Origin: Elusimicrobiales bacterium | GTDB lineage: Bacteria > Elusimicrobiota > Elusimicrobia > Elusimicrobiales > UBA9959 | Length of the DNA: 14,280 bases | NCBI GenBank assembly: GCA_049972095.1 | Contig: JBMFKQ010000038.1 | Location: 1 to 14,280, forward strand | Reading direction: 5' to 3' | In this document: positions 1 through 3,000 of the stretch, piece by piece | Numbering within the stretch: position 1 is the first letter of the stretch | Layout: every line of letters starts with the position of its first letter | Program-made: the position numbers

Positions 1-3000
1 CATCATAAAATACCTCCTAAGATTAGTTATACCTAATCCAGAGGTTTCGATGACATATTTATTATCTAACGATGATTCCTTCGATGACAAAAATTATTAT
101 CTAATGCCTCTTATTGATTTTTTGGGTTAGTTTATTATATAATTTACTTACCGGTAGGTAAGTTATGAGAAAAGCAAAACTTACAAAAGAGATGATAACA
201 GAAAAAGCACTTGAGCTTTTTTCAGAATATGGTATTGATAGAGTTTCAATGAATGATATAGCTAAAGAGCTTTCAATAACAAAACCATCACTTTATTATT
301 ACTTTAAAAATAAAGAGGATATTATATTCTACGCTTTCTCTCAAAAGATAGGCGAGATGGAGAATATACTCGGGCACATTGATAAAAAAGATGGACTTAA
401 AGATTTTATATACTCACTTATTGAAACTCACTATCGATTTTTCACCAATAATTCAACAAGGATAAAATGTTTTTTCAGAGTGCTTGATTCAGAAAACTTT
501 AAGAGGCTTGAAGGTTTGATAAATATGGTTGTCAATAGAATAAGGGTTAAGATAAGAAAGAACCTTCTTTCCTCTGCAACTGAGGATAGTGTTAAGAGAA
601 ATATTGATGAGATATCTATTTTCATTAGCTCAATCATAAGTTATGTTATGATGGAAATAAAGATGAAGAGAAAAATAAATATGATCAGGATAAAAAAGGT
701 TGTTGATATTTTTATTAAAGGTCTATCTGTATTGATGTTTTTTATTTTAGTCGATCTCTATTCACTTGAGATTAGTGAGGAAAAAGCTATTTCTATTGCG
801 TTTGAAAAAAATATAAACATACAAAATGCAATAACTGCTCAGCTGATTGCTAATGAGAAGGTAAGGGAGTATTATGGTAGTTCATATCCTCAAATAAATC
901 TTTCTGCAGTATATACAAATAACATAGAAAAACCACTTGCTTTTATGGGATCAAGAATGGTTGAAATGGGTATGAGAAACTCATATTCCCTGAACATCTC
1001 TTTGAATCAAATACTATGGTCTGGAGGCAAAATAAGCTCTGCCATATCTCTTGCTAAAATATATAAGGAACTTTCAAATCAGCAGATTATTCTTTCTAAG
1101 AATGCTGTAAAAAAATCAGTAAGACAGCTCTTCTATACTCTTCTTTATATGAATGAGGTTGTTAAATTAAGAAGCGAGATGCTTTCTATAGAAAAGCAGC
1201 ATCTTGCAATGTTTGAAGAGAAATACAAGCAAGGGGTAGCAAGTGATCTTAATCTTATGAGACAAAAAGTAGAGGTTTCAAATAGAGAGGTAGATCTTAT
1301 AAAGGCTCAAAATAGCTATCAGATAACACTTCTTGCACTTAAAAATCTCTTAGGAATAGATCTTGATGAAGATATAATAATTTTGGGTGAGTTTAAATAC
1401 CTTGAAAGAGATTTTGATTTTTCAAAACTATATCACCACGCTCTTATAAATAGACCAGATTGGCGAATTGCACTTCTTCAAAGGGATATGGCTATTAAAA
1501 CTCTTGATATAGATAGAGCCTCTGATTATCCAACAATATCACTTTTTGCAAATAGACAGTTTAGTGCTGCAAATGAGAAAAGCAATTTCCCGCCACAAAA
1601 TCTTAGAGGTTGGAGTCTTGTTGGAGGACTTTCAGTAAATATGCCAGTTTTTAATGGTTTTTCGACAACAGCAAGAATAAAACAGTCGCAGAAGAATCTT
1701 GAAATTGCTGAGAGGAATCTTGAGGATATGAAAAGGAAGTTAAAAATAGAACTCAGGGAATTAGAACTTAATATGAAAGAGGTTTGTAAAAGGATAGAGG
1801 CAACAAAGATTTCACTCGAGAATGCCGATAAGATTTTAAAATCTACTGAGCAGCGCTTTAAATCTGGGCTTGCAAGTCAGCTTGAGCTTAATGATGCAAC
1901 TCTTCTTTATTCATCTGCAAGGATGAATTATATAAATTCAATTTTTGACTACATAAATCAGCTTATAAATCTTGACTACATAACAGGGAATTATGGAGGT
2001 AACAATGAAAAATAAATGTTTTTTGAGTATGATTTTAATATATGTTGTGTTTTATTCTTGTTACAAGAAAGATACCTCAAACAAAATTGAAGAGTTTTTT
2101 TATGTTGGTGTTAAAAGAATTCAAAGAATGGATTTAAAGCAAGAGATTGTTGTTGTTGGAAATATTAAAGCAAAGGATGAGGCTGTTTTATATCCAAGGG
2201 TTGGTGGTAAGCTTATAGAGAACCTTGTTAAGGAAGGAGATTTTGTAAAAAAAGAGGATCCTGTTGCGCTTATTAAACGAGACGAGGTTGGCGCGGTTTA
2301 TGAACCCTCTCCTGTCCCATCAACAATAGATGGTTACATTGGAAGGGTTTATCAGGATGTTGGTGCTGATGTCAATCCAATGACTCCAATAGCACTTGTA
2401 GTTAATCAAAGTATTGTGAGAGTTCAGATGGAGATACCGGAAAAATATCTCTCAGATATATCACAAGGGCAGAGGATTTATTTTACGGTTAGCAGTTATC
2501 CATCAAAAAACTTTTACGGAAAGATTGATAAAATAAGTCCTGTTATAGATAAAGTTTCAAGAACATTTCTTGCAGAATCAATTATGGAAAATAGCTCGGG
2601 TATGCTTAAATCAGGTATGACTGCTGAGGTTCATATAGTGCTTAAGGAAGCAAAAAATGCTGTTGCAGTGCCAAAGTCTGCAGTTATATGGAAGAATAAT
2701 AAGCCTTACATCTATCTTGCTGATAGACAAAAGAATATAGCGGTTGAAAAGGAAATAAAAATTGGAATTATAAACACTGATTATGTTGAGGCAAAAAATG
2801 TTAATGATGGAGAGTATGTGATAACTGTTGGACTTTACGGCATTAAGGATGGTGTAAAGATAAAGATAAACGAATGAATATCTTGGAGTAAAAGTATGAA
2901 CTTCACAAGTTTTTTCATAAGAAGACCTGTTTTTACAACAATGCTTGCAGTTGGGATTGTTACGCTTGGTTTATTTTCCTATATAAGGATTGGGGTGGAT

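Follow-up and report, generated by a model that had tools for sequence, protein, structure and literature searches.

A TetR-TolC fusion conserved in Elusimicrobiota, with a signal-peptide-like segment between the regulator and the efflux channel

How can a TetR-family regulator and a TolC-type outer-membrane channel be encoded in one uninterrupted reading frame, and what becomes of the two parts? The question is raised by a gene at positions 165–2015 (+ strand) of the DNA stretch analysed here (14,280 nt in full, hereafter the window), which belongs to a hot-spring Elusimicrobiota metagenome-assembled genome (a draft of 58 contigs and 1.44 Mb, 96.5% complete). The genome-wide survey's note had described this gene as a single 616-aa TetR-TolC frame followed by genes for an adaptor and an RND pump, and the inspection of the sequence bore out both statements. 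The translation runs through 616 residues without a stop, and Pfam places TetR_N at residues 11–54 and OEP at residues 206–397 and 420–608. The TetR-family regulator domain covers residues 1–186 (165–722, +), a hydrophobic, signal-peptide-like segment covers residues 187–200 (723–764, +), and the TolC-type outer-membrane factor covers residues 201–616 plus the stop codon (765–2015, +). Directly downstream lies the gene for an HlyD/MFP-type periplasmic adaptor, probably a lipoprotein (MKNKCFLSMILIYVVFYSC...; 2005–2877, +; HlyD_D23, E 1.5e-20), which shares its first 11 nt with the end of the fused gene and whose start is preceded by GGAGGT (duplex energy to the anti-SD sequence, −10.7 kcal/mol). 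It is followed by the gene for an RND inner-membrane pump (2896–5985, +), whose ACR_tran match (E 1.6e-262) spans residues 4–1012 of 1029. According to Pfam, the fused gene is both the only OEP locus and the only TetR_N locus of this 96.5% complete genome, so the cell would depend on it. Genes for signal peptidase I, BamA and SppA were all found in the genome.

The regulator half has the features of a whole TetR protein. The TetR_N match (helix-turn-helix, HTH, residues 11–54, nt 195–326) has an E-value of 7.6e-16 and a score of 58.1 bits, against a curated cut-off of 24. In the AlphaFold2 model this half contains nine helices that make up a complete TetR fold, and Foldseek aligned it with whole TetR regulators, namely FadR (3whb; TM 0.72, 180 columns), TM1030, IcaR and HapR, at target-normalised TM scores of 0.65–0.72 over 180–198 columns. 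MtrR (E 7e-10) and AcrR (E 3e-7) are among the solved structures closest in sequence to residues 1–186. MtrR and AcrR are the local repressors, of the TetR family, whose genes lie beside the RND efflux operons mtrCDE and acrAB, respectively; both are free soluble proteins encoded by separate genes, usually in divergent orientation. The TetR half studied here does not end after its last helix as a free soluble protein does: the chain continues into the hydrophobic segment and the 416-residue channel.

The channel half is equally complete. Its OEP match (E 2.3e-58) consists of two stretches, nt 780–1355 and 1422–1988, and Foldseek aligned its model with ST50, TolC, VceC and OprM at target-normalised TM scores of 0.76–0.84 over 406–428 columns. 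The AlphaFold2 model and these alignments indicate a complete TolC fold, beta-barrel strands included. Escherichia coli TolC, ST50, VceC and OprM share with it the two OEP repeats and the fold. In E. coli TolC and its kin, however, the signal peptide is N-terminal, whereas here the signal-like segment stands behind 186 residues of a folded regulator of cytoplasmic type.

The note had reported the fused frame in seven of 20 relatives. When 29 loci from 40 related genomes were translated in all six frames, it proved more common than that: 19 loci were fused (19 of the 40 genomes), nine were split into a regulator gene and a channel gene, and one contained only the channel. The fused frames were 614–661 aa long and stop-free down to about 32–35% identity; single-stop flags raised for G022, G024 and G011 corresponded to the terminal stop codons. 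Two further genomes, G016 and G040, were considered as fused and rejected, since direct translation revealed an in-frame stop between the two genes; they are not part of the fused count. The fusion was also present in G132, from a distant family of the phylum, and G021 carried a second, paralogous locus that was fused as well. An exhaustive search of representatives yielded seven fused clusters within the best 150 matches, while a profile search with an alignment of the fused proteins (alignment A1) added no further ones among the matches listed. Cluster matches in the Atlas place the same layout in Gemmatimonadota and Verrucomicrobiota.

The draft, metagenome-assembled nature of the genome, with its 58 contigs, might suggest that the two genes were joined through an error of sequencing or assembly, or that the frame is a pseudogene of recent origin. 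This reading is refuted for practical purposes. The 19 other genomes share this frame, as do proteins of NCBI, JGI, ENA and Logan origin, and a metagenome contig from an independent study (run X2) spans the junction (window 662–910) with no indel and a single synonymous change. Among the sequencing runs listed as containing this DNA, none was an RNA run. In addition, in pairs with unsaturated dS, the dN/dS ratios were 0.12–0.33 for the TetR part and 0.11–0.36 for the channel part, values that point to purifying selection on both halves.

The split relatives offer a natural comparison. In the sister family (L025–L031), in G009 (L032) and in G028 (L020) the gene order is tetR, channel, adaptor and RND pump, as here, and the split operons share with the fusion an orthologous TetR with its recognition helix, the promoter and palindrome described below, the mature N-terminus of the channel and the downstream genes. 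They differ in that a stop codon and a separate ATG stand between regulator and channel, the latter having an ordinary N-terminal signal peptide. The free TetRs of these relatives end 0–8 residues past the column of G186, the last residue of the regulator domain in the fusion. Regulator and channel genes are separated by a gap of 5–8 nt, overlap by ATGA (L032) or by eight codons (L020), or are divided by a TAG followed by an ATG in the same frame (L031); such stop and start layouts show that the fused and split states lie close to one another. In channel trees obtained by neighbour-joining (Biopython) and with FastTree, the split loci L020 and L032 were nested among fused lineages. The fusion is therefore not obligatory, since these two have split again.

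Upstream of the fused gene, the best promoter-like match on the + strand consists of TTGATT (114–119), an 18-nt spacer and TATAAT (138–143), agreeing with the consensus at 10 of 12 positions (114–143, +). The scan as a whole gave 29 such matches, against 28.1 expected from shuffled sequence, and is by itself uninformative, because the total equals the chance expectation. The weight of this site thus rests on the comparison among related loci, in which TTGACA-like and TATAAT-like boxes lie at a constant distance from a palindrome. This 16-bp, near-perfect palindrome, TACTTACCGGTAGGTA (145–160, unstranded), is a putative TetR operator. It was found between the TATAAT box and the ATG in all 29 fused and split loci; its core reads ACCGGT in 28 of them and ACCAGT in L005, and its flanks are invariant or nearly so in three families, whether the genes are fused or split. 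The 1.44-Mb genome contains the 14-nt core of the palindrome a single time, and matches with two mismatches were at the level of a reversed-pattern control. The palindrome extends over the operon's predicted transcription start, a position from which the repressor could act on that promoter.

The presence of this site bears on whether the TetR part still regulates anything or merely persists as a long N-terminal extension of a signal peptide, a doubt that the survey's note had raised in warning that the domain might be non-functional. In several pairs the TetR part is indeed conserved somewhat less well than the channel (46–54% versus 75–81% identity in L022/L024 and L005/L007). Against its being a remnant, however, stand the low dN/dS values given above and the invariance, across 33 fused proteins, of the eight HTH positions V27, S28, K40, P41, Y44, Y45, F47 and K50 (G186 is invariant too). 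The recognition helix is nearly invariant and identical to that of the free TetRs of the split relatives, the putative operator is kept at every locus, and this is the only TetR of the genome. The TetR half is thus not decaying, and a vestigial regulator appears very improbable. Judged by its HTH residues, its recognition helix, the modelled nine-helix fold and the conserved palindrome, the repressor part looks functional.

The properties of the junction are central to how the two halves might be separated. Right after the invariant G186, residues 187–196 form a hydrophobic stretch (best 10-residue Kyte-Doolittle mean, 3.1), and the whole segment, LSVLMFFILVDLYS, ends at a predicted signal peptidase I site after S200. 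Each of the 32 distinct junctions in alignment A1 has a hydrophobic core (best 10-residue means, 2.1–3.6), within uncharged runs of 8–17 residues. The aligned junctions have a K or R just ahead of the core and small residues at −1 and −3 (ARA|E, AKA|Q, AMA|E and LYS|L, for example), a few residues ahead of the conserved mature start of the channel; these −3/−1 motifs were read by eye and are of a kind frequent by chance. Taken together, these features reproduce the n-, h- and c-region pattern of a signal sequence, here internal, and the fused junctions stand as far from the conserved mature N-terminus as the ordinary signal peptides of the split relatives do. The junction is also the fastest-evolving part of the gene (dN/dS 0.27–1.4), and AlphaFold2 confidence falls below 50 at residues 192–198. 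What is conserved at the junction is signal-peptide features and not sequence.

In the clade to which the window belongs the signal is weaker: K185 is the sole basic residue near the core and a Leu occupies position −3, while another member, P0009, has a Phe at that position.

Three other explanations of the junction were considered and rejected. Export by the Tat route does not fit, as no twin-arginine motif is present at the junction, nor does a lipoprotein channel, as no lipobox precedes the mature part in the aligned junctions. A programmed frameshift might have been suspected at a dnaX-like A AAA AAG (692–698), where a shift to the −1 frame would yield a truncated TetR; this heptamer is not kept in L005, and the shift would delete the conserved last helix.

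A hydrophobic segment between an inner and an outer domain might also be an uncut signal anchor, in which case the entire chain would remain an inner-membrane protein, a regulator like ToxR whose periplasmic domain resembles TolC. The topology is suggestive, since ToxR and CadC likewise have a cytoplasmic N-terminal DNA-binding domain, one hydrophobic segment and an extracytoplasmic part. Those two proteins belong to another DNA-binding family, however, and have a genuine transmembrane helix together with a periplasmic sensor, their maturation involving no signal peptidase cut. In place of a stable transmembrane helix of about 20 residues, the fused proteins have the uncharged run of 8–17 residues noted above, a length usual for signal peptides but insufficient for a stable helical anchor, with the small-residue motifs behind it; in place of a sensor they have a complete TolC fold with its barrel strands, in what is the sole outer-membrane factor for the adjacent RND pump. 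Retention of the uncut protein seems, on these grounds, more improbable still than a vestigial regulator.

A further possibility, also foreseen in the survey's note, is that the channel is made from an internal start just before the hydrophobic core, with the loss of a stop codon giving the long fusion as a minor or useless side product. The window's clade does have in-frame ATGs at M167 and M173, 33 and 27 residues ahead of the predicted cut, and in two of its four members (L005, −6.4 kcal/mol; L006, −5.6 kcal/mol) a GGAG-like sequence lies upstream of the ATG at the M167 position; L019 and L022 keep an ATG at a position followed by K and a hydrophobic stretch. No start codon position is conserved at the junction, however, and six of 20 fused loci have no ATG, GTG or TTG in the stretch from 45 to 15 codons ahead of the channel part, in which the start of a signal peptide would have to lie. 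For the other 14, the best SD energy had a median of −3.4 kcal/mol, against −3.2 kcal/mol in control windows of the same genes and against −9.3 to −13.6 kcal/mol for the gene that follows in the AT-rich clade. Initiation at M167 would produce a 34-residue signal peptide with the last TetR helix as its n-region, and the fusion protein would still be made by ribosomes reading through from codon 1. A promoter-like site scoring at least 10 of 12 was absent from the + strand between 500 and 760. The caveat is largely answered by these data, and a separately initiated channel is unlikely as a general explanation; within the window's own clade, where M167 is kept, an internal start could still be in use.

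The reading that we favour, and regard as fairly probable, is that of a conserved fusion of a TetR repressor with a TolC channel in which the Sec signal has become internal, the precursor being cut by signal peptidase I into repressor and channel. In the proposed scheme, the TetR domain is, as the sequence shows, translated first and remains in the cytoplasm. The n-region of the signal would be supplied by its basic C-terminal tail, ahead of the hydrophobic core and the signal peptidase I site, and this internal signal would direct the nascent chain to SecYEG with its N-terminus inside. The 416-residue channel part would then be translocated and cut off after about S200, to proceed to BamA and the outer membrane as other TolC proteins do. 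The remaining 200-residue 'signal peptide' would be the repressor, kept initially at the inner membrane through its hydrophobic tail, and possibly released later, for example by SppA. It counts against this scheme that exporting a chain in which a folded domain of 186 residues precedes a rather short hydrophobic core is plausible by analogy only. The survey's note had proposed much the same; the part that stands as a result is that one conserved polypeptide contains a full TetR, an internal signal-like segment and a full TolC channel beside adaptor and RND genes, whereas cleavage at the membrane, the tethered repressor and the feedback are what we infer from it.

The fusion may add to regulation, for instance through a fixed 1:1 ratio, membrane tethering or coupling to export, or it may simply be a tolerated merger of two translationally coupled genes. 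A more specific proposal, for which our confidence is low, is that each exported channel subunit leaves one repressor subunit at the inner membrane, close to operon DNA that would be drawn there by co-translational insertion of channel, adaptor and pump; a signal-peptide peptidase would later free or destroy this subunit, which the hydrophobic tail would hold until then, and repression would report that export had succeeded and not just that the channel had been synthesised. Were this true, export-reporting repression would be a bacterial regulatory principle without described precedent that has arisen repeatedly in several phyla.

Precursors with a comparable fate exist. In the Bradyrhizobium FbcH precursor of cytochromes b and c1, signal peptidase cuts at a signal sequence that lies within the chain, and the N-terminal product is functional. 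The Env protein of HERV-K(HML-2) has a 13-kDa signal peptide (PMC2649029), of the long type with a job of its own. Cleavage by signal peptidase leaves a functional N-terminal product in both FbcH and HERV-K(HML-2) Env, whereas the cleavage proposed here is predicted; in neither of these precursors is a bacterial transcription factor linked to a protein of the outer membrane.

The note's view that such an architecture has not been described stands for the full-text literature open to searching, outside subscription journals: a search of it found no description of a TetR-TolC fusion, and passages of PMC4827864 and PMC8277102 do not describe one either; the proteins themselves, however, are already in public databases under plain 'TolC' names, and the layout recurs in other phyla. 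A repressor, a signal peptide and a channel are each textbook parts, which cannot be said of a single gene with a product to be shared out between nucleoid and outer membrane. Should processing take place as proposed, this would be a natural bacterial signal peptide with a second job, and a transcription factor made 1:1 with a protein under its control; it would further reveal the ease with which neighbouring genes coupled in translation merge and split when the downstream one has a signal peptide. The system is small, with a defined putative operator and natural split counterparts, and the effect of fusion on regulation is directly testable in it. The annotation 'TolC family protein' hides the regulator, and in the present genome its only TetR would be missed.

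Inspection of the 616-codon gene g01319 (165-2015, plus strand) showed a single open frame, in which Pfam placed a TetR_N helix-turn-helix at residues 11-54 (E 7.6e-16) and two OEP repeats at residues 206-397 and 420-608 (E 2.3e-58). The two parts were assigned to the TetR/AcrR family and the TolC outer-membrane factor family. This frame is the only locus in the genome (a draft of 1.44 Mb in 58 contigs, 96.5% complete) that matches TetR_N, and also the only one that matches OEP. Pfam identified an HlyD-type adaptor directly downstream (start most likely at 2005, with a GGAGGT Shine-Dalgarno sequence and a lipoprotein-like N-terminus) and, beyond it, an RND pump (2896-5985). 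Genes for signal peptidase I, BamA and SppA are present in the genome.

The extent of the fusion was determined by our own six-frame translation of the 29 loci obtained from 40 related genomes. In nineteen, a single frame of 614-661 aa ran through the TetR and channel parts without a stop; nine contained two separate genes, and one the channel alone. Automatic open-frame lengths of 646-686 aa overstate the fusion at three loci (L031, L042 and L044, from genomes G040, G016 and G182); in these split loci the TetR and channel genes share a frame and lie one stop codon or a few codons apart. The fused form was found in 18 of the 24 genomes of family f1 (G009 and G016 are split; G003, G005, G006 and G007 gave weak or channel-only matches), in one of the two genomes of f3 (G026 fused, G028 split), and in none of the seven f2 loci examined, the remaining seven f2 genomes, with distant channel matches only, being outside the count. 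Fused members extended down to 32-35% identity with the window protein. A 301-genome sample of the phylum added G230, G236 and G280, as well as a fused form in G132, from a distant family, the last confirmed by translation. Further, genome G021 carries a second fusion, a 649-aa paralogue (L041; C27:5900-9400, minus strand) with ∼24% identity to the window protein and the same design: a TetR tail ending in LICKGA, a hydrophobic core and AAA|QE. An additional free TetR gene adjoins it. A contig from an independent study spans 662-910 with no insertions or deletions and one synonymous change. The single TetR-to-channel frame described in the genome-wide survey's note is therefore confirmed, both by translation of the relatives and by this bridging of the junction.

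Eighteen fused proteins, 612-635 aa long, were present in public protein collections, where they bear the name ‘TolC family protein’ or, at JGI, ‘outer membrane protein TolC/AcrR family transcriptional regulator’. Named relatives came from Elusimicrobiales/Elusimicrobiota MAGs, and the window DNA was present in hot-spring metagenome runs. An exhaustive search of cluster representatives gave seven fused clusters among the best 150 listed. Among these seven, P0174 differs in its linker and carries an internal Met-Lys-Lys signal of its own, suggesting an independent fusion event. Three ESM Atlas clusters combine TetR_N with OEP; they occur most often in Elusimicrobiota (170 members), Gemmatimonadota (98) and Verrucomicrobiota (54).

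Across 33 aligned fused proteins the TetR part ends at an invariant glycine (G186 in the window). The free TetRs of split relatives terminate 0-8 residues past this column, indicating that the fusion retains the TetR part at full length, with essentially no linker. Most lineages then have a short basic tail (type G-A-R-x-L-K). A hydrophobic core was present in all 32 distinct junctions (best 10-residue Kyte-Doolittle mean 2.1-3.6; uncharged run of 8-17 residues), often separated by proline or glycine from a small-residue motif (ARA|E, AKA|Q, AMA|E or CHA|E; L-Y-S|L-E in the window) lying a few residues before the conserved beginning of the mature channel. The ordinary signal peptides of split relatives end equally far from that point. 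The dN/dS of the junction segment was 0.27-1.4, versus 0.11-0.36 in the flanking domains; its character is kept while its sequence is not, which is how signal peptides evolve. An AlphaFold2 model of the whole protein (mean pLDDT 84.5) showed nine TetR helices, the last continuing into the hydrophobic stretch, followed by a TolC protomer; confidence fell below 50 at residues 192-198. In Foldseek searches the N-terminal part matched whole TetR regulators and the C-terminal part ST50, TolC, VceC and OprM.

The same note had cautioned that an internal start might yield a normal, separate channel. All in-frame ATG, GTG and TTG codons ahead of the core were listed, and Shine-Dalgarno pairing energies compared with control windows. 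No conserved internal start codon was found at the junction of the 20 fused loci; six (L011, L012, L015, L017, L018 and L021) had no ATG, GTG or TTG 45-15 codons upstream of the channel part. For the remaining 14 the median best energy was -3.4 kcal/mol, and control windows of the same size, taken elsewhere in these genes, gave -3.2. Only in L019 and L022 was an ATG kept at the ‘Met-Lys-hydrophobic’ position. Although these results weaken the caveat overall, the window's own AT-rich clade might make its channel from M167, which is kept there 33 residues ahead of the predicted cut and has a GGAG-like sequence upstream in two of the four members. However, such a start would give an odd signal peptide of 34 residues and leave ribosomes begun at codon 1 unstopped. 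Energies at the junction in this clade were -3.1 to -6.4, versus -9.3 to -13.6 at the next gene. Within the last TetR helix, at 692-698, an in-frame A AAA AAG forms a dnaX-like slippery heptamer; its -1 frame meets a stop after three codons, and its conservation does not extend to the nearest relatives.

The TetR part showed dN/dS values of 0.12-0.33 (pairs with unsaturated dS), and V27, S28, K40, P41, Y44, Y45, F47 and K50 were invariant in the 33 fused proteins. The recognition helix, T-K-P-x-L-Y-Y-Y-F-K, is common to fused and split orthologues. All 29 loci of the three families, fused or split, share an upstream layout consisting of a TTGACA-like box, a TATAAT-like box, two bases and a 16-bp palindrome (consensus TACYTACC.GGTARGTA), which in the window is a putative operator at 145-160 (TACTTACCGGTAGGTA). 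Its ACCGGT core was present in 28 of the 29 loci; the distance from core to ATG was 9-13 nt in 22 and 19-50 nt in the other seven. The genome contains a single copy of the 14-nt palindrome core. By position the palindrome overlaps with the expected start of transcription, where TetR-type autorepressors usually act, and the closest solved sequence relatives of the TetR domain are MtrR and AcrR, both RND pump repressors. At two loci (L011 and L013, from G012 and G021) the fused gene is directly preceded by another, free TetR gene of 209 aa (plus-strand frames at 763 and 760), which has a TTGAC-N17-TATAAT promoter of its own and no ACCGGT palindrome; at these loci the fused gene has its palindrome 26 nt ahead of the ATG.

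At the level of sequence, then, the earlier interpretation stands as regards one conserved polypeptide, with two complete folds, a signal-peptide-like junction, selection on both halves and a conserved putative operator. The feedback between pump assembly and transcription that it proposed is possible. The nascent TetR domain would remain inside while the internal signal engaged the Sec translocon, N-terminus in; the channel part would be translocated and cut loose behind residue ∼200, and would then insert into the outer membrane. The leftover 200-residue piece would be a repressor whose C-terminal tail is the signal's hydrophobic core. This tail could hold it at the membrane until release by SppA or another protease, tying repression to export. 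What makes the gene interesting is that a signal peptide probably doubles as a transcription factor, and that this is easily tested.

TetR/AcrR regulators are defined as free soluble repressors, which the fused protein is not, and TolC-family channels carry an N-terminal signal peptide, whereas the signal-like segment is here internal. The proposed cut at an internal signal sequence would resemble that of precursors such as Bradyrhizobium FbcH, and the proposed tethering that of ToxR/CadC-type regulators. The suggested second role of a long signal peptide has a possible analogue in that of HERV-K Env (PMC2649029). The TetR-TolC architecture was not found in the literature searched, reviews included. 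The fusion is a new arrangement assembled from known kinds of parts.

A maximum-likelihood tree of 31 channel parts (FastTree, LG+gamma; L027 and L030 omitted as near-duplicates of L025 and L029) was rooted, arbitrarily, on the distant P0174. One clade (support 0.99) held all f1 and f3 orthologues, 21 fused and two split, with f2, split in five of five, as its sister. Both split members were nested in a subclade (support 0.993), the fused L023 being sister to the split L032 (support 0.95). Read most simply, the tree describes a single old fusion that was later undone by two secondary fissions. The split layouts (an ATGA overlap in L032, an eight-codon overlap in another frame in L020, and TAG followed immediately by ATG in the same frame in L031 and G016) show that the step between the two states is small. 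Two secondary fissions would make the fused state dispensable. The export-linked feedback fits the data no better than a selectively neutral merging of two genes coupled in translation.

Read depth over window positions ∼1-107 was 4-10 times that of the remainder in two sequencing runs (X1 and X2), and the contigs of all three runs diverge into different sequence at 101-107, indicating that the contig begins within a repeated element. A minus-strand gene with an apparent start at about position 6, preceded by a GGAGGT site, is truncated by the contig end. Two further minus-strand ORFs were observed: one of 169 aa (11402-11911) with a signal-peptide-like N-terminus, a repeated LEKK coiled-coil stretch and only sub-threshold Pfam hits, and a lysine-rich one of 112 aa (13808-14146) with no Pfam match.
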